This document shows, piece after piece, positions 4,702-24,991 of a stretch of 64,000 bases of DNA. The stretch covers positions 128,001 through 192,000 of the forward strand of contig OZ242010.1 of assembly GCA_965204745.1 (NCBI GenBank), given 5' to 3'. Position numbers and translations under genes: made by a program. Position 1 is the stretch's first letter. Each line of letters begins with the position of its first letter. The notes under the pieces were generated by a model. That model made no database searches, was not told where the DNA came from, and was given only the letters and a program-made list of their open reading frames with translations. This stretch comes from Candidatus Latescibacterota bacterium. GTDB lineage: Bacteria > Latescibacterota > UBA2968.

Positions 4702-5048
4702 GGGACTGACCACTGACCACTGACCACTGACTACTTGAGAAGGATAGCGCGGCTACCTTCTCCCCTCTTGCATCTTTGGGCGAACACGGGAGTATCGCTC
4801 CTACATCTGCGCCCTCTGCATGATCTGCGAGCCGCCTTTGGGCGGCGATGGGCGGGGACTGACCACTGACCACTGACTACTTGAGAAGGATAGCGCGGCT
4901 ACCTTCTCCCCTCTGTATCTTTGGACGAGCACGAGGACGTCGCCCCTACATCTGCGCCCTCTGCATGATCTGCGAACCGCCTTTGGGCGGCGATGGGCGG
5001 GGACTGACTACTGACTACTGACCACTGACTACTGACTACTGATTACTG
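4702..5048. repeat. Tandem duplication of a ~150-bp unit containing ACTGACC/ACTGACT heptamer arrays and a GTAG-type REP palindrome
   Basis: Units at about 4702-4855 and 4856-4999, then a heptamer run at 5000-5048. Each unit holds ggRcgaRcacg...tcgcYcctac (GTAG-REP on the minus strand). Confidence 0.85.
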
Positions 5049-7194
5049 TTGCCTTTCTCATCGCCCAGCGAATTTCCTCTGCGGTCGTATTCGGGTCCGA
5101 GGGGTTGATGAGGTTGCCGAAAATGTCTGCGCCCACCACATGTTTTCGCAGGCCGGGGCCGCGGAGGAGGGACGTGATGTGGATTTGCATGTGATAGCCG
5201 TAGTCGATGCCATTTGTGGGGGCTTGCATCAGGGCTAAGGTGTAGTGATAGGGGGCGTTGAACAAGCGGTCTAAGCCGCGGAGGACATCGCGCACCACCA
5301 TTGCGAGGTCGCGCCGTTGTGCGGCTTGCAAGTCCAACAGGCTCGGCGCGTGCGCCTTGGGGGTGATGATCACGTCGTAAGGGAACTGCGCGGCATACGG
5401 AACATAACCCAGCGCGTGTGGGCGATCAGACACAACGCGCCGTCCGTCTTGGGATTCAATGCGGTTGGCGTCGCAAACAAAACAGCGCCCGGTTCTCTCG
5501 CGGTGGGACGCGAACCGCGCCAACTGCGGTTTCACCATCAGGTCCGGAATGTCGCCGTAGGCATAGACCTGCCCGTGCGGGTGGGGTTGCGAATTGCCCA
5601 TCACCGCGCCGCGATTCTCAAAAATCAAGGGATAGGCGATCTCGGCCTTTTTCCCCAAGCGCGCGTAAATCTCTGCCCAGGCGTCGATGACGCGGACGAA
5701 CTCGGCTAAGGACAAGGTGGACAATCGTTGCGCGTGATCGCGGCTATAGACCACGACTTCGCAGATGCCTCGGCAGGTGCGAGACGCATAAGGCCCCAGT
5801 TGTTCGCGGGTTTGGTAGGCGTCTAATTCCAACGCGGGAAAATCGTTCTCAAATGTCCACACGCCCTCGTAATTCGGATTCGCATCGCCGCGTGCGCGTG
5901 CGTTGCCGGGGCAGAGATAACAGTCGGGATGATAGGCGCGATCAGCAGATTCGTCCATCTCTTGCGTTTCTCCGTGCCAGGGCCTGTCTCGGCGATGGGC
6001 CGCGATATTGACCCACCTGTTCCAAAACGGATTGAACCGTTCCTCTTGCACGACCCGATACCCGTGCGGATGCAGGCGATGCCAGTGCCAAGCGGAGTCG
6101 ATGATGTCGCGTAACGACTCTTGTGCGACCCAACCCAGTTCGCGCCGAATGCGGCTCGGATCCGCGATCAGCGTTGCCGGATCGCCCTGTCGGCGCGCAC
6201 CAATCGCCGTGGGAATCGCATGCCCGGTGATGTCGCGTGCGGCTTCTACAATCTCCTTGACGCTCCAGCCATAGCCCATGCCGAGATTGTAAGTCGCGGA
6301 CGGCCCGCCCAGCAACAACCCGTCCAAACTCTTGATATGGGCATCGGCTAATTCCACCACCGAGAGGTAATCGCGCACAGCCGTGCCGTCGGGCGTCGCG
6401 TAATCATCGCCAAACAAGACGAGTTTGTCGCGTTGTCCCAACGCCACTTGCAAAATGAGGGGGATTAGATGCGTCTCGGGCGCGTGGTCTTCGCCGATCA
6501 AACGCGAGGGGTCCGCGCCCGCGGTATTGAAATACCGGAGGACGACATAAGGCGCGCCAGTGCGTTGCTCTGTGTAGTGCAACATGCGTTCCCCCATCAT
6601 TTTTGTGATGCCATAGACGTTCAGGGGGATTTTCAGCATGGCGATATCTTCTTCGCACAATTTGAACGCGCTGTGTTTTTCGCACCACTTTAGCAGGGTG
6701 TCAAAATTGACCGCCGCGGGCATCAACTGGCTGTGGTCAAAGCCCCCAGCTGCGATCCATCGTTGCGGATAATCCTCTTTCAATGGGAGGTGTTCTGCGC
6801 GGGGTTCGCCGTAAATTGCGGCGGTCGACGATTTTACGAGAGGCAACCCGCTGGCTATGTCCAGCAAGTTTTGAAATGCAACGACATTGTGATCAAAATA
6901 CAGGCGCGGCGCGGTTTGGGATTCCCCGACCAAAATTTTGGCGGCAAAGTCGATGATCCCGCAAAACTCGTGGCGTTCAAAAACACAGGCCAGAGCATCG
7001 CGGTCGAGCAAACTGACATGCTCGAAACAAAATTGCTCTGGCCCATACACTTGTTCAAACAAGGTGACGACTTCCCGGTTGCCCGTCGACAAGTCGTCTA
7101 ACACCACCACGCGGCGATGATCTTCCAACAACCGCCGAACCGCATGGCTGCCAATATAACCCGCGCCCCCCGTCACCAAAACAGCATGCTCCAT
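5029..7194 (-). CDS. galE-galT: Fused UDP-glucose 4-epimerase / galactose-1-phosphate uridylyltransferase
   Basis: N-half: VTGGAGYIGSH, YGITK (YxxxK), LRYFN, GEDHAPETHLIP, DGTAVRDY. C-half: RFNPF..W...HR..RPW, CYLCPGN, FENDFPAL, GNSQPHPHGQ (HPH active site). One continuous ORF. Confidence 0.9.
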   Translation of the reverse strand: MEHAVLVTGGAGYIGSHAVRRLLEDHRRVVVLDDLSTGNREVVTLFEQVYGPEQFCFEHVSLLDRDALACVFERHEFCGIIDFAAKILVGESQTAPRLYFDHNVVAFQNLLDIASGLPLVKSSTAAIYGEPRAEHLPLKEDYPQRWIAAGGFDHSQLMPAAVNFDTLLKWCEKHSAFKLCEEDIAMLKIPLNVYGITKMMGERMLHYTEQRTGAPYVVLRYFNTAGADPSRLIGEDHAPETHLIPLILQVALGQRDKLVLFGDDYATPDGTAVRDYLSVVELADAHIKSLDGLLLGGPSATYNLGMGYGWSVKEIVEAARDITGHAIPTAIGARRQGDPATLIADPSRIRRELGWVAQESLRDIIDSAWHWHRLHPHGYRVVQEERFNPFWNRWVNIAAHRRDRPWHGETQEMDESADRAYHPDCYLCPGNARARGDANPNYEGVWTFENDFPALELDAYQTREQLGPYASRTCRGICEVVVYSRDHAQRLSTLSLAEFVRVIDAWAEIYARLGKKAEIAYPLIFENRGAVMGNSQPHPHGQVYAYGDIPDLMVKPQLARFASHRERTGRCFVCDANRIESQDGRRVVSDRPHALGYVPYAAQFPYDVIITPKAHAPSLLDLQAAQRRDLAMVVRDVLRGLDRLFNAPYHYTLALMQAPTNGIDYGYHMQIHITSLLRGPGLRKHVVGADIFGNLINPSDPNTTAEEIRWAMRKATVISSQ

Positions 7195-7218
7195 ACGTCA
7201 AACCTCTTTGTCTATTGA

Positions 7219-7245
7219 TGCTTTTAGCCGCGCAATTTCATCGCG
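7219..7245. repeat. 27-bp direct repeat, copy 1 (displaced uvrB 3' end)
   Basis: tgcttttagccgcgcaatttcatcgcg, identical to 9215-9241. Confidence 0.9.
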
Positions 7246-8128
7246 TTTCTTCAATGCGTTTGGCGATGAGCCGCTTTAATTCTGTAAAATCAGCAGGGAC
7301 ATATTTGGCGTTTCTGAGCAGATCCTTCGCGACCTCATTGATCTTTTCGCGTCCTTGTAGTTGCGTCCCATCTGTCGAGATGACTCGAAAATATCCGGAA
7401 TTAATTACCTGTGCGAGCACCCTTTTGCCGCTAACCCTATCCAACCAATCACCCGAGCCAAAGGCGAGTTGGTCGTTGCCATTTGTCATTTCCTCAAGAC
7501 ATTCCTCAAAGCGGCGTTCCACCTCTTCAGCAGAAACCGCATTCTCAACACGGATGCGATGTTGATCAAATTCGTTCGCCTGGTTCAATTTTTCCAAAGC
7601 GATTTCTTTGGAGGGAAAGTCATCGGGATTGGAAAATATTTTAATCCACTCCTCCTTTAGGTCTTCCCGGATAGAGATAATGACATGGTTCGCAACATCG
7701 AGAAACAACCGCTTGTTGGCAAATTGTAGAATTTGTCGCGCCAGATCGTCTTGTTCGGCTTGGCAAAACCGCGACTGAATGAGATAGTTCGGATCTAAAA
7801 AATAGTTTTCGATCTCCCGTCGTCTCCAGACGAGTAGGTTGGATGTAGCAGGGTTCGGAAAATCGCGCCAGCAACGGTTTATGAACTCAATTTTGTGGTG
7901 ATCGCGGTCGATCAAAAAATAATAGGTCGGATGGTGGGGGTGCAAAGCCTCCGCAACGCTTTTTACTGAATAGGCAGGGCCAAGAGGCTCTATGCGAAGG
8001 CGAGGGTCAAAAAGTTCACTGAGAACTTTGGGGTCAAAAGCATTCTGATCTTTCCCTTCGACAAAGAGAACATGTCGTGCCTGAAAGTGGACGCTTTCAG
8101 AACGGATTCCCCTTCTAACGCCGATCAT
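7238..8128 (-). CDS. TOPRIM / DUF4435-like nuclease (AriB-like partner of the ABC ATPase)
   Basis: Start MIGVRRG overlaps the upstream stop (ATGA) and has a GGAGG RBS. Motifs VLFVEGKD, FLIDRD (DxD) and REIENYF match OLD/DUF4435 TOPRIM domains. Confidence 0.7.
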   Translation of the reverse strand: MIGVRRGIRSESVHFQARHVLFVEGKDQNAFDPKVLSELFDPRLRIEPLGPAYSVKSVAEALHPHHPTYYFLIDRDHHKIEFINRCWRDFPNPATSNLLVWRRREIENYFLDPNYLIQSRFCQAEQDDLARQILQFANKRLFLDVANHVIISIREDLKEEWIKIFSNPDDFPSKEIALEKLNQANEFDQHRIRVENAVSAEEVERRFEECLEEMTNGNDQLAFGSGDWLDRVSGKRVLAQVINSGYFRVISTDGTQLQGREKINEVAKDLLRNAKYVPADFTELKRLIAKRIEETR

Positions 8129-9189
8129 GTGCCATCCTCCTGTTCTTCCACCAAGAGAATGCGCCGATCTTCGGCAACCGAGTCCATGATCTCTTCGGAA
8201 TGGGTTGCGATGATATATTGATTTTTCGGTGCCAAGTCCACGAGATCTTTGACAAAAGTGCGGTGCCATTGGGCATTCAGGTGCAACTCTGGTTCGTCGA
8301 TAAACACGACCGACGGGTTGTTCTTCGTATGATCCCACACCAAGAACAAAGTCGAAATGATTTCCTTTTGTCCAGAACTCAGACCGTCAAACGTAAATGA
8401 TTCTCCGCCGCGCTCGGGTTGCACGCGGAAATCAAAGGTGTTGTCAGGAGACGGGCGGAGTTTACCGATGGTGCCGCGTGCATAACGCGCCATCAACGCA
8501 TTGAGTTGCTCTATCGTATCGTCCGGCTCTCGATCTTCCACAGATTCAAAGAGTTGTGCCTTTCCCATCATAGAACGCAAAATCCGCAACTTAAATTCAC
8601 TCATCGGCCTGCGTCTCATTCTTGGCAACCGGTCTCGGTCCACCAGCATGCCGAGTTCTGGATTTCCCTCTTGAACTTTGCGATAGCTGTGGAACAAGAG
8701 AAAGGTATTCTCGACAACTGGGTTGGGCGTAAAGCCACAGATCGCGTTTATGAAATCGTCAAGATCGCGTTCTGAAACAGACCGTTCATTTGCCACCATT
8801 TTTTTTTCAAGCGATTTACCAGATATAGTGCCGTCGCCACGCCGATCTATCCGAATTTGCACCTTGCCCAATGCCTCGCCAAAGGCGATGTCGCCGGCAA
8901 TTTCCGCACATTGTGCATCCGATCTGATCAGCAAGTCGGGCACATCCACACTTGAATAATAGTCGGTCAAGTCGGTGAAAGAAAAATTCTCTTCCTCGAG
9001 CGTTGCCGCCAAAAGCAATAGCGAGCAACACTCAATAATTGCTGTCTTGCCGATCCCGTTCTCGCTACCCATCACGAGGATATCCGGATCGCCGGACATT
9101 TTAGGCGGGGGAAAGTGCAACTCGAGTTCGTCAATGCCCTTGTAATTTTGGATGGCTATTCGCCTGATCTGGATGGACATTTTTTTCAT
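8125..9189 (-). CDS. ABC-type ATPase (AAA_15/AAA_21), AriA-like defence ATPase
   Basis: IRRIAIQNYKGI, Walker A GSENGIGKT, signature LSSGQ, Walker B VFIDEPELHL, H-loop IATHS. GGAGGT RBS before ATG 9189. Confidence 0.85.
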   Translation of the reverse strand: MKKMSIQIRRIAIQNYKGIDELELHFPPPKMSGDPDILVMGSENGIGKTAIIECCSLLLLAATLEEENFSFTDLTDYYSSVDVPDLLIRSDAQCAEIAGDIAFGEALGKVQIRIDRRGDGTISGKSLEKKMVANERSVSERDLDDFINAICGFTPNPVVENTFLLFHSYRKVQEGNPELGMLVDRDRLPRMRRRPMSEFKLRILRSMMGKAQLFESVEDREPDDTIEQLNALMARYARGTIGKLRPSPDNTFDFRVQPERGGESFTFDGLSSGQKEIISTLFLVWDHTKNNPSVVFIDEPELHLNAQWHRTFVKDLVDLAPKNQYIIATHSEEIMDSVAEDRRILLVEEQEDGT

Positions 9190-9202
9190 GATGACCTCCT
9201 CG

Positions 9203-11191
9203 TTACGCAATCTCTGCTTTTAGCCGCGCAATTTCATCGCGGTAGTGCGCGGCTTTTTCAAACTCTAAGTTTTCGGCGGCTTCGGCCATTTGGCGCGTGA
9301 GTTCTTCGATCAGCTCCAGTTGATTGTCGCTGTCCAAATAGGCTGCGGATTCCTCGGCGACCAGGGGCAGGTCTTCGGCTTGCTCGTCGGCCACCGCTGT
9401 CGATTGGAGAATCTCCTCTCGGGTCTTGTACAGGGTCTTGGGGGTGATGCCGTGGTTGGCATTGTACGCCTCTTGCAATGCGCGGCGGCGATTGGTCTCG
9501 TCGATGGCGCGGCGCATCGAATCCGTCACCTTATCCGCGTACATGATCACCGTGCCTTCCGCATTGCGGGCCGCGCGCCCGGCCGTTTGAATCAGCGAGC
9601 GTTCGGACCGCAAAAAGCCCTCCTTATCCGCGTCTAAAATCGCCACCAGCGACACTTCGGGCAAATCCAAGCCCTCGCGCAACAAGTTCACGCCCACGAG
9701 CACGTCAAACTCGCCCAAGCGCAAATCGCGGATGATCGCCACGCGCTCGAGCGAATCCACATCCGAGTGCATATAGCGCGCGCCGATGCCCAACTCGCGC
9801 ATGTATTCCGACAAGTCTTCGGCCATGCGCTTGGTCAGGGTCGTCACCAACACGCGATGCCCGCTCTCCACGCGCTGCCGGGCCTCTTCGATGAGATCAT
9901 CGACCTGCCCGCGCACCGGGCGCACGATCATTTTGGGATCGAGCAAGCCGGTGGGCCGAATCACCTGCTCGACCACCACGCCCTCGCAGCGTTCCAACTC
10001 GTAATCCGCGGGCGTGGCCGACATGAAAACGACCTGCTTGGCCTTTTGTTCAAACTCCTCGAAATACAGGGGGCGATTGTCCAGCGCGGCGGGCAATCTG
10101 AACCCGTGCTCGATCAACACCTCTTTGCGAGACCGGTCCCCGTTCCACATGCCGCGCAACTGCGGCACTGTGACGTGGGATTCGTCCAGCACGATCAGAA
10201 AATCGTCTGAAAAATAATCCAACAACACATAAGGTGCTTCCCCGGGCGCGCGCCCGTCGATGTAGCGCGAATAATTTTCAATGCCCTGGCAGAACCCGAT
10301 CTCGCGCATCATCTCGATATCGTAGCGCGTCCGCATTTCCAACCGCTGTGCCTCCAACAATTTGCCCTGGTTGTGAAACGCCTCCAATTGTTGGGTCAAA
10401 TCAAATTCGATCTTTGCTATGGCTCTCTCGATCCGATTGCCGCTGGTGACGAAGTGTTTGGCCGGATAAATGACGATGCGGTCGCGTTCTTCGATCACCT
10501 CGCCCGTTACCGGATGCACGATGCACAGCGCGTCGACCTCGTCGCCAAAAAACTCCACGCGCACCGGATGCTCGCGCTCGGGCGGATAAATTTCGACCAC
10601 ATCGCCGCGCACCCGAAACGCGGCCGGCGCGAGTTCTATGTCATTGCGCGCAAAGTGAATGTCCACGAGTTTTCGCAACATGGCATCGCGGTCCATCTCT
10701 GCGCCGCGATCCAACACGACGAGGTGATCCTCGTATTCCGTGGGGTTGCCAATGCCGTAAATGCACGACACACTCGCCACGATGATCACGTCTTGCCGCT
10801 CCATCAACGCACTGGTCGCGCGCAGGCGCAAGCGGTTGATTTCATCGTTGATATCCGATTCTTTTTCAATAAATGTATCCGTCACGGGTTTGTACGCTTC
10901 CGGCTGGTAATAGTCGTAATACGAGATGAAATACTCCACGGCATTGCGCGGGAAAAAGCTGCGAAACTCCCCGTAGAGTTGCGCGGCCAGGGTCTTGTTG
11001 TGGGAAATCACGAGCGTGGGCTTTTGAATGGCTTCGATCACTTTTGACATGGAAAACGTCTTTCCCGTGCCCGTGGCGCCCAACAAAGTCTGGTACCGCA
11101 TGCCCGTGCGAATGCCCTGGGCGAGTTCTTCGATGGCCCGCGGCTGATCCCCGGCCGGCTCAAAAGGCGATACCACTTCAAATTTCGGCAT
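9203..11191 (-). CDS. uvrB: Excinuclease ABC subunit B
   Basis: [73 protein letters not shown]-terminal UVR domain ([11 protein letters not shown]). Confidence 0.97.
9215..9241. repeat. 27-bp direct repeat, copy 2 (inside uvrB 3' end)
   Basis: Identical to 7219-7245; encodes RDEIARLKA of UvrB. Confidence 0.9.
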
Positions 11192-11236: not shown

Positions 11237-11264
11237 AGAATATAACATCTCGGGTTTCTGTCAA
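11237..11264 (-). promoter_or_regulatory. Putative sigma-70 promoter for uvrB
   Basis: Minus strand TTGACA-16 nt-TATTCT, about 45 nt upstream of ATG 11191. Confidence 0.45.
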
Positions 11265-11331: not shown

Positions 11332-11652
11332 ATGACCGAACAGACGCGCACAAAAATTCTGCAATCCACACCGACCGGCATTCGCAAACTCGACCACAAA
11401 CGCCTGCGCGCCCAACTGCATCGCGCCGCGCCCCCAGTTGATTACGACCGATATATGCGATCCAAGGCGTGGCAAATCAAACGGCGAAAATTCCTCGCCC
11501 ACTTCAACTGCCAATGCGCCCTGTGCGGCAGCAAAGACCATCTGCACGTCCACCACTTGCACTATGAGACCCTGGGCAACGAGCGCGTGGAAGACGTCCT
11601 CGTGTGTTGCAGGCGGTGCCATTTCCTCGCGCATAAGAAAGGGGAGAGGTGA
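11332..11652 (+). CDS. Small HNH endonuclease
   Basis: Y..YMRSKAWQIKR...CALCGS...HVHHLHYETLGNE...VLVCCRRCH (Zn-binding HNH). Confidence 0.85.
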   Translation: MTEQTRTKILQSTPTGIRKLDHKRLRAQLHRAAPPVDYDRYMRSKAWQIKRRKFLAHFNCQCALCGSKDHLHVHHLHYETLGNERVEDVLVCCRRCHFLAHKKGER

Positions 11653-11776
11653 GAGGCAAGAGGCGAGAGGCAAGAAGTGAGAGGCGAGAGGCGAGAGGCA
11701 AGAGGTGAGAGGCAAGCGAAATGTCTGGCGCGCGTTGCCGAGCTTTATCCGGGAGAGGCGAGAGGCAAGAGGTGAG
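11646..11776 (+). repeat. GAGGC(A/G)A / GAGGTGA heptamer array
   Basis: About 10 degenerate 7-mers at 11646-11716 plus more at 11754-11776. The first unit supplies the HNH stop TGA. Complementary pyrimidine-strand arm at about 11884-11911. Confidence 0.85.
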
Positions 11777-11959
11777 GGAAAAGACGGGGTTAACGCACGC
11801 GGCGGAGGGGGGAAGAGGAAGGGCACGCACACGGCGGGGCAGGGTGGCGGAGGGGATCGCACTTGGGCGGTTGGGTGGGGTTGCCTCACCTCTCCCGTCT
11901 TGCGTCTCACCGCAGGGGGTTGGGCGGGGTGGGAACTGACCACTAATTCCGGAGCTTCC

Positions 11960-13294
11960 ATGCCAAATATCATCATCATCACCACGCACGACACCGGGCG
12001 GCATTTGGGGTGTTATGGCGTCGAGACTGTGCATACGCCGGCCATTGACGCCATCGCCGAGGATGGATTCAAATTCACGCGCTATTTCACCACGAGCCCG
12101 GTGTGTAGCCCGAGTCGAGGGGCCATGCTCACGGGGCGGTATCCGCAGAGCAATGGCCTGATTGGCCTGACGCATTCGCATTGGAATTGGCGTTTTCATG
12201 AGGGCGAGCGGCACCTCTCGCACATCTTGCGCGACGCGGGTTATCACACGGCCCTGTTCGGCCTGCAACACGAAGCGGCCAACCTCGACGATCTGGGATT
12301 TGAGGCCGTGCATGCCAGGCGGCGTTCAACCGCGCCCGTGGTGGCCCGCACGCTGGCCGATTTTCTCCGCACAGACGCCGCACGCAAAGCCCCGTTTTAC
12401 GCGCAGGTCGGCTTTTTTGAAACCCATCGCCCGCACGATTTTGGCGATGTCGAACCCGACGATAGCAAGGGCGTTTTCGTCCCGCCCTATCTCGTCGACA
12501 ACGAGATTTCTCGCAAAGCCCTCGCCTTGCAACAAGGCGCGATCCGCCGGGTGGATGACGCGGTGCGGATCATCACAGACGCGCTCGCGGAAAGCGGCTT
12601 GGAGGACGATACCCTGCTCGTGTTCACGGTCGATCACGGCATTGAATTTCCCCGCGCCAAGTATTTTTGTTACGACTCGGGCATCGGCGTCGCCCTGCTG
12701 ATGCGCTGGCCCGGTGGCGATGTTCGCGGGGGCATAACGTGCGACCACCTGCTCAGCAATGTCGATTTTTTACCCACCCTGATGGACCTCATCGGCCAAC
12801 CCGTGCCCGGCAATGTCGAGGGCATCAGCTTTGCCCAAGTGTTCACAAATCCCGATGCGCCGCCGACGAGAGACGCGGTCTTTTCCCTTTTTTGTGACAG
12901 CGACAGCCGCAGCATTCGCACGGACCGCTACAAGTTCATTCGCCACTTCAGCCCGCGCCGTTTGATGGACACGCCGGTCGACATGACAATTTCGCCGGAG
13001 GCGGTAATCTACGATTTTCTCGGTCGGTGCTTGATAGACGCACCGGGCACTGCAAAAAACCCGCCTAAACCGCGCATCCCACAGCCCGTAGCGCAACTCT
13101 ACGATTTGGAAAACGACCCCAACGAGTTTGACGATGTCGCGCGCAATCCCGAATACCGGGACATCTATAACGCCTTGAGCCAACGCCTTTGGCAGTGGAT
13201 GGAAGACGTGAACGACCCCACGCTCAAAAGCCCGCTTCCCACGCCGTATTACTGGGAAGCCATGGCGGATTATCGCAACCCCCACGCGAAATAG
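11960..13294 (+). CDS. Formylglycine-dependent sulfatase (sulfamidase-like)
   Basis: MPNIIIITTHD, CSPSRGAMLTG (CxPxR), FFETHRP, TVDHG, QLYDLENDPNE. GGAG RBS. Confidence 0.92.
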   Translation: MPNIIIITTHDTGRHLGCYGVETVHTPAIDAIAEDGFKFTRYFTTSPVCSPSRGAMLTGRYPQSNGLIGLTHSHWNWRFHEGERHLSHILRDAGYHTALFGLQHEAANLDDLGFEAVHARRRSTAPVVARTLADFLRTDAARKAPFYAQVGFFETHRPHDFGDVEPDDSKGVFVPPYLVDNEISRKALALQQGAIRRVDDAVRIITDALAESGLEDDTLLVFTVDHGIEFPRAKYFCYDSGIGVALLMRWPGGDVRGGITCDHLLSNVDFLPTLMDLIGQPVPGNVEGISFAQVFTNPDAPPTRDAVFSLFCDSDSRSIRTDRYKFIRHFSPRRLMDTPVDMTISPEAVIYDFLGRCLIDAPGTAKNPPKPRIPQPVAQLYDLENDPNEFDDVARNPEYRDIYNALSQRLWQWMEDVNDPTLKSPLPTPYYWEAMADYRNPHAK

Positions 13295-13330
13295 GGGGCG
13301 TCCTGATCCCACTTCATGAAAGGAAATATC

Positions 13331-14536
13331 ATGTCCACGGGAAAACCCGTAACCCTCGCACTGGTCGGATGCGGCGGCATTGCTGGCGCGCATCTGCGGC
13401 GGTATGACGAACTCCTCGCCCGCGGCGAAGACCGATTTCGCATTGTCGCCACAGTGGATAGCGATTTTGACCGTGCAACCGCGTGTGCAGATCAGATCAG
13501 CGGCAAAACCGGCTGGGCCGTGACGCCCTATGCCTCGGTGGAAGACCTGCTCAACTCGGGCACGGCCCTCGACGGCGCGGATATTTGCAGTCCGCACGGC
13601 CTCCACCATGTCCTCGCTTGCGAACTGCTCGCGGGTGGGGTGCATATCCTCTGCGAAAAGCCCATTGGCGTGACCGTGAAAGCCACGAAACAAATCATCG
13701 CCACAGCCAAACGCCACGACAGGATCGCCGCCAATGCCGAACAGTGCCGCCGTAGCATTGGGCAACGCACCATTCACTGGGCCTTTCACAACGGCCTGCT
13801 CGGGGATGCGCGGTTGTGGTACGCCATCCGATCCGGCTGGCAAGACCCCGCGGATCACCCGGACTGGCACTGGCGCGTGGATCGCAAACTCGGGGGTTGC
13901 GGCATGGTGATGGACAGCGGCGCGCACTGGGTAGATACGATGCGCTATTGGTTTGGGGAGATCGACAGCGTGTACGCCCGAGTCGAGCAACTCGAAGCGC
14001 GCCCGCACAAAAAAGGCGACCGTCTGGTGGCAGACGCCCGCGAGGATTTTTGGACGAGCATTTTCAATTTTGCCAATGGCGTGATCGGCACCTGGTCGTG
14101 GACTATCAGCGCGCCCGGCAAGGGCTTTACCCAACTCGCGCTCACCGGCACCAAGGGCAGCATTGTCGATAGCGACATTTTCCACCCGGCAGCGTCGCAA
14201 GCGCGGGGCGAGTGCCATCTGCTCGACGGAACGACCTACGGCATGTCCCAACTGCAAGCCATGTTCCTCGACACCCTCGGCCCACGCGACAAGGACCGCC
14301 TTTTTCCCTACGGCCTCACCGATGGCATGGCGATTGAATTGTGGGATTTTATCGACGCCCTCAGCACCGGGCGCGATGTTGAAATCGACGCGACAGAGGG
14401 CCTCAAGAGCAAAGCCGTGAGCGAGGCGATCTACGAATCGGGCACGAGCGGACAGGTCGTCAAAGTGGCCAACGTGATCTCCGGCAAGGTCGATGCTTAC
14501 CAGCGCGATGTCGATCAAATGTGGGGATTGGATTGA
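13331..14536 (+). CDS. Gfo/Idh/MocA-family oxidoreductase
   Basis: LVGCGGIA, HILCEKP, GGCGMVMDSGAHWVD. AAAGGAA RBS. Confidence 0.92.
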   Translation: MSTGKPVTLALVGCGGIAGAHLRRYDELLARGEDRFRIVATVDSDFDRATACADQISGKTGWAVTPYASVEDLLNSGTALDGADICSPHGLHHVLACELLAGGVHILCEKPIGVTVKATKQIIATAKRHDRIAANAEQCRRSIGQRTIHWAFHNGLLGDARLWYAIRSGWQDPADHPDWHWRVDRKLGGCGMVMDSGAHWVDTMRYWFGEIDSVYARVEQLEARPHKKGDRLVADAREDFWTSIFNFANGVIGTWSWTISAPGKGFTQLALTGTKGSIVDSDIFHPAASQARGECHLLDGTTYGMSQLQAMFLDTLGPRDKDRLFPYGLTDGMAIELWDFIDALSTGRDVEIDATEGLKSKAVSEAIYESGTSGQVVKVANVISGKVDAYQRDVDQMWGLD

Positions 14537-14623
14537 GCGAATGATCCATGCAGGGCAAGAGGCAAGAAGCAAGAGGCAAGAGGTAAGATTGAACTGAGCG
14601 GATGATCCGAGAAGGGACACCGA

Positions 14624-14668
14624 GAAAAAACGGGCCGCGGTCAAAATGATCGCGGCCCTATTTTTTTC
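14624..14668 (+). terminator. Intrinsic terminator, possibly bidirectional
   Basis: A-tract, then GGGCCGCGGTCA-AAA-TGATCGCGGCCC, then a T-tract, after the oxidoreductase gene. Confidence 0.7.
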
Positions 14669-14676
14669 AAAATAAC

Positions 14677-15088
14677 TGACGTTACGCAGTACGTCAACGG
14701 AGCCAGTTGACATTTACGAGCCATGCACCGGCTTGAGCGGTTTATCGAGAAAATCAAGTCCTGACGTTCCGCAGTTCAAAGAAAGCATCCCAACAAGTGC
14801 CCTCGCAAAACCCCCTCCGATCAAGCCATCACGCACAGCGCGCAAGTCCGTTTCGCAACCAACGTCCATTATGCAACCCACTTTGCAGGCTGGCGCATAT
14901 CGTTCTGTTACAAAAGCGATTTGCGCTGTGCAAGCCTCTCGGCGTTTGAGAGCGGCATTTTTTGCTTACTTTTTTTTGCTGTTGAAAAAAAGTAAGTCGC
15001 CGAAGGCATCGAAGGCAACAAACGAGGCTGTAGGACCAAACACATTAAATGAGCAAGCAACACATTTGTTAATCTGTGCGTAACGTCA
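14677..15088. mobile_element. MITE-like non-coding element with 12-bp terminal inverted repeats
   Basis: TGACGTTACGCA (14677-14688) and TGCGTAACGTCA (15077-15088). The ~340-bp core recurs inverted at about 59713-60071. Confidence 0.6.
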
Positions 15089-24005: not shown

Positions 24006-24991
24006 TGCGAATTAAGAGTTGAATCCATCGCGTACTTGTCTTTTTTTGAGGGCTCAATCATTTCACCCTTAAAGGAAGGAGCACGCGATGGATTGGCAAG
24101 ATAAACTCATTCACTTGTATGTCTATATTTGTCAGCAGTATGACCAAAAGCATCTGTGGTTTTATACGGAACGCATGAGTAATAACGACACGCCGACCTT
24201 CACAGATGAAGAAGTGCTGACGATCTATTTGTTTGGGATCATGCAACAACACACGCAGATCAAGGCGATTTATACCTATACCAAGGATCATTTGTTCGAC
24301 TGGTTTCCCAATCTGCCCACTTATGCAGGCTATATCCAGCGGTTGAACCGCTTGTGTGTGGTCTTCGCCCCATTGATTGAACAAATCCAAAAGGATAGTC
24401 CCGCAACCGATGTCTCTGAACACACCTACTTGGTGGATTCCATGCCGATTGTCATGGCACAATCGGCACGTAGCGGAAAGGCATGTGTGGCTGAAGAACA
24501 ACGGGCCAACAAAGGCCGCTGCGCTTCCAAAAAGATGTGGTATTACGGCACCAAACTGCACATGGTCGCACAAGACCGCGAGAATGGCCTCCCGAAAGCA
24601 GAGTACTTCGGCTTGACAGGCGCAGCAGAGCATGACCTGACTGCTTTGCGACACGTCTTACCCGTTTTGCGTGATGGACACCTCTACGGCGATAAACTCT
24701 ACGCCGATCAGCCCTTAAAAGACACGCTTAGCAAACAGCAGAACCTGATCTTCGAGACGCCGGTGAAGCGAAAAAAGGGGCAAGAAAGCCTGACCGAGGC
24801 CGAAAAAGACTTTTCTCGGGCGGTTTCGAGCATGCGACAGCCTATAGAGGCCTTGTTCAGTTGGATTGAACGAAAGACGAACATCTCGATGGCGTCTCGG
24901 GTACGATCCTATGAGGGCTTACTCGTTCATGTCTTTGGGCGATTGACCGCGGCTTGCTTCTTACTCGCTTTCTACTCTTAATTCGCATTGT
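24002..24991 (+). mobile_element. IS982-family insertion sequence
   Basis: 18-bp inverted repeats ACAATGCGAATTAAGAGT (24002-24019) and ACTCTTAATTCGCATTGT (24974-24991), ~990 bp, one transposase ORF. No target duplication visible. Confidence 0.88.
24088..24981 (+). CDS. IS982-family DDE transposase
   Basis: FTDEEVLTIYLFG, LVDSMPI, KKMWYYGTKLH, YGDKLY, RQPIEALFSW. AAGGAG RBS. Stop lies inside the right IR. Confidence 0.88.
   Translation: MDWQDKLIHLYVYICQQYDQKHLWFYTERMSNNDTPTFTDEEVLTIYLFGIMQQHTQIKAIYTYTKDHLFDWFPNLPTYAGYIQRLNRLCVVFAPLIEQIQKDSPATDVSEHTYLVDSMPIVMAQSARSGKACVAEEQRANKGRCASKKMWYYGTKLHMVAQDRENGLPKAEYFGLTGAAEHDLTALRHVLPVLRDGHLYGDKLYADQPLKDTLSKQQNLIFETPVKRKKGQESLTEAEKDFSRAVSSMRQPIEALFSWIERKTNISMASRVRSYEGLLVHVFGRLTAACFLLAFYS

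Follow-up and report, generated by a model that had tools for sequence, protein, structure and literature searches.

Phage anti-restriction-induced systems (PARIS) combine an ATPase, AriA, with a nuclease, AriB, and are found in 5.2% of genomes (PMC9122126). Characterized AriA and AriB assemble into an AriA6:AriB3 complex. In the Escherichia coli system, AriA sequesters AriB until a phage anti-restriction protein frees it, whereupon AriB cleaves tRNA-Lys and arrests translation (PMC11464382). The published rule identifies PARIS by an AAA_15 match of at least 32 bits or an AAA_21 match of at least 27 bits, adjacent to a DUF4435 match of at least 27 bits (Rousset et al. 2022; PMC9122126). Cis-mobilizable elements (CIMEs), for their part, are described as elements that keep attL and attR, minus the integration genes (PMC5704250). 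Here we analyze a 64-kb stretch of contig OZ242010.1 from a Candidatus Latescibacterota bacterium (hereafter the window, at its full length), in which a two-gene cassette of the PARIS type is spliced into the 3' end of the repair gene uvrB, between exact 27-bp direct repeats and immediately ahead of a galE-galT fusion. The explanation that we favor, with a probability of roughly 0.55, is that a foreign unit integrated into uvrB in a Campbell-type event and that its PARIS-type module is read from the uvrB-galE-galT transcript.

All genes of the locus (uvrB, the ATPase gene, the nuclease gene and galE-galT) are on the minus strand. The features are as follows, from the upstream end of uvrB.

11237-11264, minus strand: promoter-like site TTGACA-16-TATTCT (10/12) upstream of uvrB, from a consensus scan, a pattern match only
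9203-11191, minus strand: uvrB, 662 aa from MPKFEV, in a frame open to 11248; NCBIfam UvrB model NF003673 at 1053.5 bits (cut-off 743); relatives are 662 aa long
9215-9241, no strand: left 27-bp direct repeat (attL-like), within uvrB, encoding RDEIARLKA
9203-9214, minus strand: replacement uvrB tail from the insert, GAGATTGCGTAA, read as E-I-A-stop and mimicking E-V-A-stop
9190-9202, minus strand: 13-nt spacer CGAGGAGGTCATC with the GGAGG ribosome-binding site of the ATPase gene, whose ATG is at 9189
8125-9189, minus strand: AriA-like short ABC ATPase, 354 aa, with Pfam and PADLOC matches
7238-8128, minus strand: AriB-like DUF4435/TOPRIM protein, 296 aa, its start overlapping the stop of the ATPase gene as ATGA (8128-8125)
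7219-7245, no strand: right 27-bp direct repeat (attR-like), containing the stop of the AriB-like gene
7198-7218, minus strand: displaced native uvrB tail, SIDKEV-stop, now noncoding, with the GAGGT ribosome-binding site of galE-galT
5029-7194, minus strand: galE-galT fusion, 721 aa, 3 nt past the displaced uvrB stop; TIGR01179 (galE) at 336.6 bits, TIGR00209 (galT) at 231.2 bits, Pfam Epimerase and GalP_UDP_transf

The window contains exactly two copies of the repeat, TGCTTTTAGCCGCGCAATTTCATCGCG, at a spacing of 1,996 bp. A search that allowed up to three mismatches still returned only these two copies, and none of 100 dinucleotide shuffles contained any match. The flanks of the two copies show no similarity to each other, and the identity ends sharply at either edge. 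The locus has the structure A-repeat-X-repeat-B, in which A is the native uvrB and B is the lineage's own uvrB tail together with the galE ribosome-binding site; the unit of 1,996 bp consists of one repeat plus the 1,969 bp of X. UvrB is native up to the repeat, and its final four codons (EIA-stop, the stop at 9205-9203) derive from the insert. X starts with these 12 nucleotides, which resemble the family-typical E-V-A-stop, and the uvrB-like 3' stretch of the unit comprises 39 nt in all, the 27 nt that it shares with the host and then E-I-A-stop; the 27-nt identity stops precisely where the SIDKEV lineage diverges from the typical uvrB end. In the frame of uvrB, the right repeat continues into SIDKEV-stop (7218-7198), CGT and the galE ATG at 7194, with GAGGT located 7 nt before the ATG. 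The B segment, which still holds GAGGTT, might itself be a typical tail broken by 12 extra nucleotides. At the far end of the unit, the AriB-like gene closes with T-R-stop, spelled A/CG CGA TGA with the slash at the repeat edge, so that its last two codons and its stop (7240-7238) fall inside the right repeat. The insert between the repeats is 48.5% GC, compared with 57.4% for uvrB and 58.0% for galE-galT, and the GC content at third codon positions (GC3) is 49-57% in the insert genes vs 69-74% in the flanking genes. A previous sequence-only reading of this DNA had described perfect 27-bp repeats at these positions, a second copy that reads on in the uvrB frame through GAGGT to end 3 nt before the galE ATG, and an insert of about 2 kb that holds only two coupled genes, has no integrase or promoter space and takes its final stop codon from the repeat; each of these points was borne out.

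Near relatives of the host show the same site empty, and the cassette is therefore a real insertion, either gained or lost. Among distant UvrB proteins, all 119 non-self sequences in the 120 best C-terminal matches end in RLK[AS]EVA (96 in AEVA, 23 in SEVA), so that the EIA-stop tail of the cassette copies the family-typical end of uvrB; some of the listed UvrB relatives were deposited as Gemmatimonadetes metagenome-assembled genomes (MAGs), and the relatives of the host are Gemmatimonadota in the deposits. Taken alone, the EVA-type ends would argue that EIA-stop is native to the host. We do not take it as such because the 90% identity cluster of UvrB (49 members, 40 of them read and 15 listed) holds near relatives that end in SIDKEV or SIDKEA. 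Besides the window protein, only two of the relatives listed, P0124 and P0125 (99.3-99.4% identical), end in AEIA. The nearest cassette-free relative, P0127 (98.7% identical), ends in RLKASIDKEV, which agrees at every letter with the tail that an empty site should have. The end is RLKTSIDKEA in P0122 and P0132 (96.7-96.9%), the latter encoded on a 41,250-bp contig, and [AT]EVA in nine UvrB proteins at 93.5-94.3%. The SIDKEV-type end that the sequence-only reading had taken for the original uvrB terminus is thus a real protein end in P0127, with the variant TSIDKEA in P0122 and P0132. Throughout the C-terminal region up to the repeat, the window UvrB is the same as P0127 and shows no EVA-type mosaic, which places the junction between foreign and native sequence at or within the 27 nt.

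The contig that encodes P0127 is 21,863 bp long, and a contig of equal size holds a GalE-GalT fusion protein (P0284) that is 98.3% identical to that of the window. Neither any of the eight members of the 90% cluster of the window AriB nor any of the 15 listed members (of 21) of the ATPase cluster comes from a contig of this size. Judging from the SIDKEV tail, uvrB probably abuts galE there directly. The empty uvrB site for which the sequence-only reading had proposed to look in relatives thus has a candidate in P0127, with its SIDKEV end, a GalE-GalT on an equal-sized contig and no listed cassette protein. Conversely, cassette proteins and GalE-GalT come from equally sized contigs of 109,615, 9,103, 6,691 and 16,547 bp, and a 2,724-bp contig that encodes a 116-aa C-terminal fragment of AriB and a 720-aa GalE-GalT has room only for direct adjacency of the two. 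Judging from these coincidences, strains with GalE-GalT proteins at 97.8-98.3% identity to the window protein appear to include both occupied and empty alleles. All 14 inspected AriB proteins at 87-99% identity end in AKRIEETR, running through the repeat, and the junction is common to all of them; the nearest AriB proteins of other species end in ...ETN or ...EMN, and the window ariB is clipped by one codon. On a contig of 345,664 bp, the size of the contig of UvrB P0125, the two cassette genes were called as a single 647-aa protein (P0273; 95.9% identity with the ATPase across 316 residues and 92.9% with the nuclease across 296), reflecting either natural fusion of the AriAB type or a frameshift.

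More distant AriB-like proteins, at 68-72% identity, share contig sizes with EVA-type UvrB proteins of other species in seven cases (10,452; 19,228; 65,319; 112,748; 219,871; 561,647; and 4,717,263 bp). For these EVA-type species, uvrB and galE-galT coincide in contig size only on contigs of at least 34,648 bp, which are too long to show direct adjacency. Two AriB-like proteins from still more remote lineages, at 64% and 59% identity (P0180 and P0252), share contig sizes of 10,034 and 5,507 bp with GalE-GalT proteins at 67% and 61% (P0324 and P0330, respectively), one of these bearing the depositor's name Latescibacteria; the cassette may neighbor galE-galT well outside the window species, or these may be chance coincidences at short sizes.

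The published rule assigns the gene pair to PARIS, with 56.6 bits for AAA_15 (Pfam cut-off 32.1) and 51.4 bits for AAA_21 (cut-off 27) in the ATPase, 33.1 bits for DUF4435 (cut-off 27) in the AriB-like protein, and genes that overlap by ATGA. Against the PADLOC models, the ATPase matched PtuA (3.3e-22), AriAB (1.1e-21) and AriA (1.8e-18), and the nuclease matched AriAB (5.7e-14) and AriB (1.3e-9). The profile searches suggested in the sequence-only reading therefore connect both proteins to PARIS models. The PARIS architecture that it had named holds as far as AAA_15, AAA_21 and DUF4435 above the curated cut-offs and the PADLOC matches to AriA, AriB and AriAB are concerned, and has to be qualified in that the ATPase is nearer to PtuA and the fold match of the nuclease to AriB is weak. 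In the main, the interpretation given in that reading is supported; that the cassette might respond to DNA damage and be excised by recombination, as it further proposed, is a possibility. On the basis of the operational rule and the domain logic, we class the cassette with PARIS, in a divergent branch with a PtuA-like short ATPase; as a defense system, it belongs to a family that is known and common, within which it is divergent.

The ATPase family comprises 223 representatives at E<=1e-30, those listed being mostly about 345-385 aa long. Across 63 homologs, the Walker A residues G41-x-x-N44-G45-x-G47-K48, the signature-motif residues L270, S272 and G273 and the H-loop residue H330 are invariant or nearly so, and S271 and Q274 of the signature motif and the Walker B residues D298 and E299 are nearly invariant. 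The AlphaFold2 model of the ATPase has a predicted local distance difference test score (pLDDT) of 89.9 and a predicted template modeling score (pTM) of 0.90. For the AriB-like protein, 629 relatives were recovered at E<=0.001 among 1,628 candidates from a set of 5.8 billion proteins, and the best 120 of the 629 are 267-304 aa long, mostly 293-297. The protein is full length, since its homologs are mostly of that size and only its last residue differs from the nearest other-species ends. Six acidic residues, E24, D32, D74, D76, E105 and E107, are invariant in 48 AriB-like homologs and make up a TOPRIM metal-site pattern; the acidic residues reported for E. coli AriB are E26, D30, D88, E90 and E122 (PMC11464382), the correspondence between the two sets being by motif order (VEG ... 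DxD ... E), not by direct alignment. The AlphaFold2 model of the nuclease is less well defined (pLDDT 80.5, pTM 0.76). A search of NCBIfam with the nuclease returned no family, and tblastn of the nuclease against plasmid and phage collections gave no match.

Like PARIS of E. coli B185 from the P4 satellite hotspot, the window cassette has an ATPase gene followed by a DUF4435 gene and keeps the acidic TOPRIM residues and the ATPase motifs, and the existence of PARIS also as a one-gene fusion is paralleled by the window relative with a 647-aa open reading frame (ORF) across both genes. Unlike that system, it is part of a housekeeping operon rather than of a prophage or satellite hotspot, and its ATPase is shorter than the solved AriA and is nearer to PtuA in both sequence profile and fold. 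PtuA, of Septu and of retrons Ec78 and Ec83, is the nearest solved relative of the window ATPase by profile, fold and top PADLOC hits, but PtuA pairs with the HNH protein PtuB, whereas the partner here is a DUF4435/TOPRIM protein with no HNH match in Pfam. The ATPase scored 63.2 bits with the NCBIfam PtuA model, far under its 500-bit cut-off, and with no HNH partner the cassette does not belong to Septu. The Ec78 and Ec83 retrons differ further in having a reverse transcriptase and a noncoding RNA, neither of which is present here; an Rfam scan of the whole window was empty. The domain logic of an ATPase and a TOPRIM domain is shared with the OLD-family nucleases and GajA of Gabija, and OLD and GajA are among the profile hits of the ATPase, but these are single chains, in contrast to the two proteins here, and all of these matches fall well short of those to PtuA, AriA and AriB.

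As to the packaging, the closest parallels are the CIMEs and other integrase-free, att-flanked elements, which are described as being flanked, where a conserved gene ends (3'), by direct repeats of 8-60 bp, with a replacement gene end supplied by the insert and with no integrase (PMC5704250). The window unit has exact 27-bp repeats at a gene 3' end, supplies EIA-stop and displaces SIDKEV-stop; it differs from CIMEs in being only 2 kb long, with no noncoding slack, no signs of decay and no known helper element. A recombinase or its remnant, the other hallmark of integrative elements, is absent: the insert consists of two genes and the 13-nt spacer, and no recombinase family was detected among 30 ORFs of the window. 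The repeat may mark how far a captured uvrB tail was homologous to the host gene rather than the core site of a recombinase. Defense hotspots flanked by core genes, as described for Pseudomonas aeruginosa among others, likewise hold defense cargo between housekeeping genes, are polymorphic in near relatives and lack mobility genes; in the present case, by contrast, the cargo disrupts the coding end of one flank, has an exact duplication on either side and is integrated in an operon. An integron gene cassette with an attC hairpin was considered and rejected: as single-stranded DNA, the right repeat folds no better than shuffled sequences (z = -0.17 and -0.19), and the left one is marginal (z = -1.8 and -2.0). 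A transposon with a target-site duplication was rejected as well, there being no inverted-repeat pair at the insert ends (among 12 pairs reported in 6000-11000) and a duplication of 27 bp, when those of transposons are usually 2-15 bp long.

In the route that we consider best, a circular copy of the unit would have included 39 nt imitating the 3' end of uvrB, with the 27 host-identical nucleotides followed by E-I-A-stop, and would have recombined once with the host uvrB inside the 27 nt (Campbell-type integration), duplicating them. This crossover would have handed uvrB the family-typical tail of the unit and displaced the native SIDKEV-stop tail, along with the ribosome-binding site of galE, behind the second repeat. 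A single crossover between such a circle (repeat plus X) and the uvrB end yields exactly the present structure. We infer the circular intermediate, its enzyme and the direction of the event. The catalyst would be either a recombinase encoded elsewhere or the homologous recombination machinery of the host, for which 27 identical bases are near the lower limit. The circle might have originated in a relative with ariA-ariB directly behind uvrB, and the EVA-type species that share contig sizes with AriB proteins at 68-72% identity would fit as donors. A Pfam scan of 30 window ORFs detected no integrase or recombinase, and the insert has no room for one; the only mobility gene among these ORFs is a DDE transposase (DDE_Tnp_1_3 / DDE_Tnp_1) at 24088-24981 on the plus strand, about 15 kb off.

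Several observations weigh against integration of a PARIS-type module by this route. No circular form, recombinase, trigger or target has been observed, and nothing links expression of the cassette to DNA damage. The empty site and the co-location of the genes are deduced from protein ends and identical contig sizes, not from DNA, and should be read as probable. With respect to the identity of the module, the profile of the ATPase family matched PtuA (Septu, retron Ec78) at 4e-22 over the full length and AriA at 2.7e-13 across no more than the C-terminal 65 residues; the Foldseek matches listed for the ATPase are all PtuA or retron PtuA-type proteins (best E 1e-16, template modeling (TM) score 0.62), with no AriA chain among them; and, at 354 aa, the protein is about 110 residues below the 464-aa solved AriA. 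For the nuclease, the two best-ranked folds are indeed AriB chains (8ux9_A and 8v46_D) but are not significant (E 0.044, probability 0.75 and TM score 0.36 for the best), hits 3-5 are C-terminal TOPRIM regions of OLD proteins, and none reaches E<=0.001; nor did the nuclease have a relevant sequence match in the PDB, either as a single sequence (one unrelated hit, E 0.11) or as a 48-sequence profile (none). Finally, the occupied and empty alleles could mean loss as well as gain. The AriB proteins with the common junction differ by 1-13%, and the GalE-GalT proteins on the same contigs by about 2%, a gap that could reflect long residence and not a recent insertion.

Loss is the subject of one rival account, which we regard as distinctly unlikely, namely, that this bacterial family has long had the cassette at this locus and that recombination between the two repeats deleted it precisely, leaving the uvrB genes that end in SIDKE[VA] as scars. 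The seven contig sizes shared by AriB-like proteins (68-72%) with EVA-type UvrB of other species speak for it, as do the EETR junction in 14/14 AriB proteins at 87-99% identity next to a GalE-GalT divergence of about 2% and the displaced tail, which is atypical for the family. However, this account leaves the origin of the second repeat unexplained, and any simple insertion model needs a uvrB-repeat-SIDKEV ancestor; moreover, UvrB proteins of two sub-lineages, at 98.7% and at 96.7-96.9% identity, have the SIDKE[VA] tail, whose own divergence (A to T, V to A) is what an older coding tail would show, the more distant of the two sub-lineages shows only empty sites (two proteins), and the AriB proteins of other species end in ...ETN or ...EMN, not through the repeat. 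It is also conceivable, although we doubt it, that the locus records a one-off repair or illegitimate event, in which homology-facilitated illegitimate recombination or templated repair joined uvrB-tail-ariA-ariB DNA of a related species, by copying or ligation, to a break where uvrB ends. The 27-bp duplication would then be a by-product and the unit immobile, spreading only by recombination of the uvrB and galE-galT flanks, an equally doubtful corollary. The lack of a recombinase in the window and of a significant hairpin or attC-like fold at the repeats would be natural under such an event, the tail of the unit copies the uvrB end of a relative, and the clipping of ariB by a single codon is what a microhomology joint would be expected to leave; hotspots flanked by core genes and free of mobility genes are, furthermore, well described (PMC5635113, PMC10250203). 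Against a one-off origin, cargo between duplicated uvrB tails in two cyanobacterial loci (see below) argues for a repeatable route. One-off events of this kind, moreover, usually delete target DNA rather than duplicate it.

A decayed integrative element of the CIME kind, which would have kept attL and attR and lost its integrase and transfer genes, would account for the 8-60 bp direct repeats at the 3' end of the target and the replacement gene end, described as the signature of tyrosine-recombinase elements (PMC5704250). We consider this very improbable because the insert has no spare DNA: with no pseudogene remnants either, decay must have removed everything else cleanly, and the identical compact junction recurs in all 14 related AriB proteins. 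An assembly artifact, with strain variants joined at a common k-mer, might also leave an exact short repeat at both edges of a variable segment, as a possible product of a mis-join in the assembly graph. However, the window proteins lie on a single contig of 5,482,115 bp, UvrB ending in AEIA occurs on two other contigs and AriB ending in EETR in 14 others, and an AriB fragment is found with GalE-GalT on the 2,724-bp contig; we reject an artifact, whose probability we put close to nil, because both junctions recur in independent assemblies.

The compactness of the locus bears on expression. The gap between uvrB and ariA is 13 nt, ariA and ariB overlap, and 43 nt separate the ariB stop from the galE ATG; in the empty allele, the spacing between uvrB and galE-galT would be 3 nt. 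The module is likely co-transcribed with uvrB and galE-galT because there is no promoter space and a pattern scan revealed no terminator-like sites between the genes of the locus. A consensus scan yielded five promoter-like sites, against a shuffle mean of 3.4; the best site on the minus strand (10/12) is upstream of uvrB, and the only other such site within the unit scores 9/12 and lies in ariB. The site at 11264-11237 is a candidate promoter for uvrB, the cassette and galE-galT alike, and control of the cassette by DNA damage is a possibility. The ATGA overlap suggests that the two cassette genes are translationally coupled. By analogy with the E. coli system, the ATPase would keep the nuclease inactive until a phage-made trigger frees it, the host tRNA would be cut and translation would stop; the module would then act as an abortive-infection system.

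PARIS itself is not news; what is unusual is the packaging, a full defense module that carries neither a mobility gene nor regulatory DNA, interrupts the coding end of a repair gene, where exact repeats bracket it, and brings a replacement tail, with the empty allele persisting in near relatives. This packaging is a variant of known themes, att-flanked integrase-free elements and core-gene hotspots. If the repeat plus tail works as a docking site, it offers a testable, integrase-free route by which small defense cassettes could move between genomes and would explain how conserved gene ends become hotspots. The locus also lends itself to asking whether abortive infection is coupled to the transcript of a DNA-damage-repair gene.

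For comparison with other uvrB 3' ends, 80 distant uvrB loci were fetched (51-63% identity, no close relative among them), of which 75 were analyzable. Cargo between duplicated uvrB tails was present in two of the 75, both cyanobacterial, and tblastn of both cassette proteins against all 80 loci gave no match. In the first case (L015, a Waterburya sp. MAG; 11945-13704), a 33-bp exact repeat at 11945-11977 and 13672-13704 lies within an imperfect copy of the tail that is wider on both sides and includes a second stop, and the insert of 1.7 kb encodes a DUF433 and DUF5615 pair as well as a small ORF and a GNAT acetyltransferase gene, gene pairs that look like toxin-antitoxin modules. In the second (L065, a Nostoc sp. 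MAG; 11952-14976), a 24-bp exact repeat of the uvrB tail (11952-11975 and 14953-14976) brackets 3 kb with a fragment of a NACHT NTPase and zinc-ribbon ORFs on the opposite strand. A module is common to both inserts, the small ORF at 14418-14657 of L065 being visibly similar to 12834-13109 of L015. These loci hint at repeated use of the conserved uvrB tail as a docking point, although two cases are thin evidence. A search of the literature on uvrB as an integration site, judged from titles and the openings of abstracts, returned nothing relevant. A bolder idea, which we find speculative and rather unlikely, is that the unit belongs to a class of integrase-free 'homing cassettes' that use an imitation of a core-gene 3' end as a portable docking site. 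If so, a 2-kb circle could enter or leave the uvrB end of any related genome by host recombination alone, the gene would always be restored and the defense cargo would come under the promoter of the repair gene. The unrelated cargo in the two cyanobacterial loci would fit with such homing, as would the AriB subfamily that shares contig sizes with UvrB or GalE-GalT of several other species.

Other features of the window were noted as well. The 721-aa galE-galT product contains about 40 extra residues that split the epimerase match (Pfam, 6-143 and 183-378). Fusions of the same length occur among its homologs, the best 54 of which are at least 54% identical, and some of these were deposited as Gemmatimonadetes, Latescibacteria and Poribacteria MAGs. 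Directly downstream of galE-galT, at 4705-5048, a 145-bp unit is repeated 2.2 times (92% matches), with arrays of ACTGACC/ACTGACT heptamers on both sides. Divergent from uvrB, an ORF at 11332-11652 on the plus strand encodes 106 aa with Cys pairs and an HVHH stretch, which by eye resemble an HNH motif; the ORF has no Pfam family at E<=0.01. A purine-rich tandem array of 7/14/28 nt (AGGCGAG-like, about 10 copies) occupies 11640-11716, between this small ORF and a sulfatase gene. A single ORF of 6,938 aa spans 34560-55376 on the minus strand, with a GC3 of 0.73, for which two overlapping pieces matched no Pfam family at E<=1e-5.

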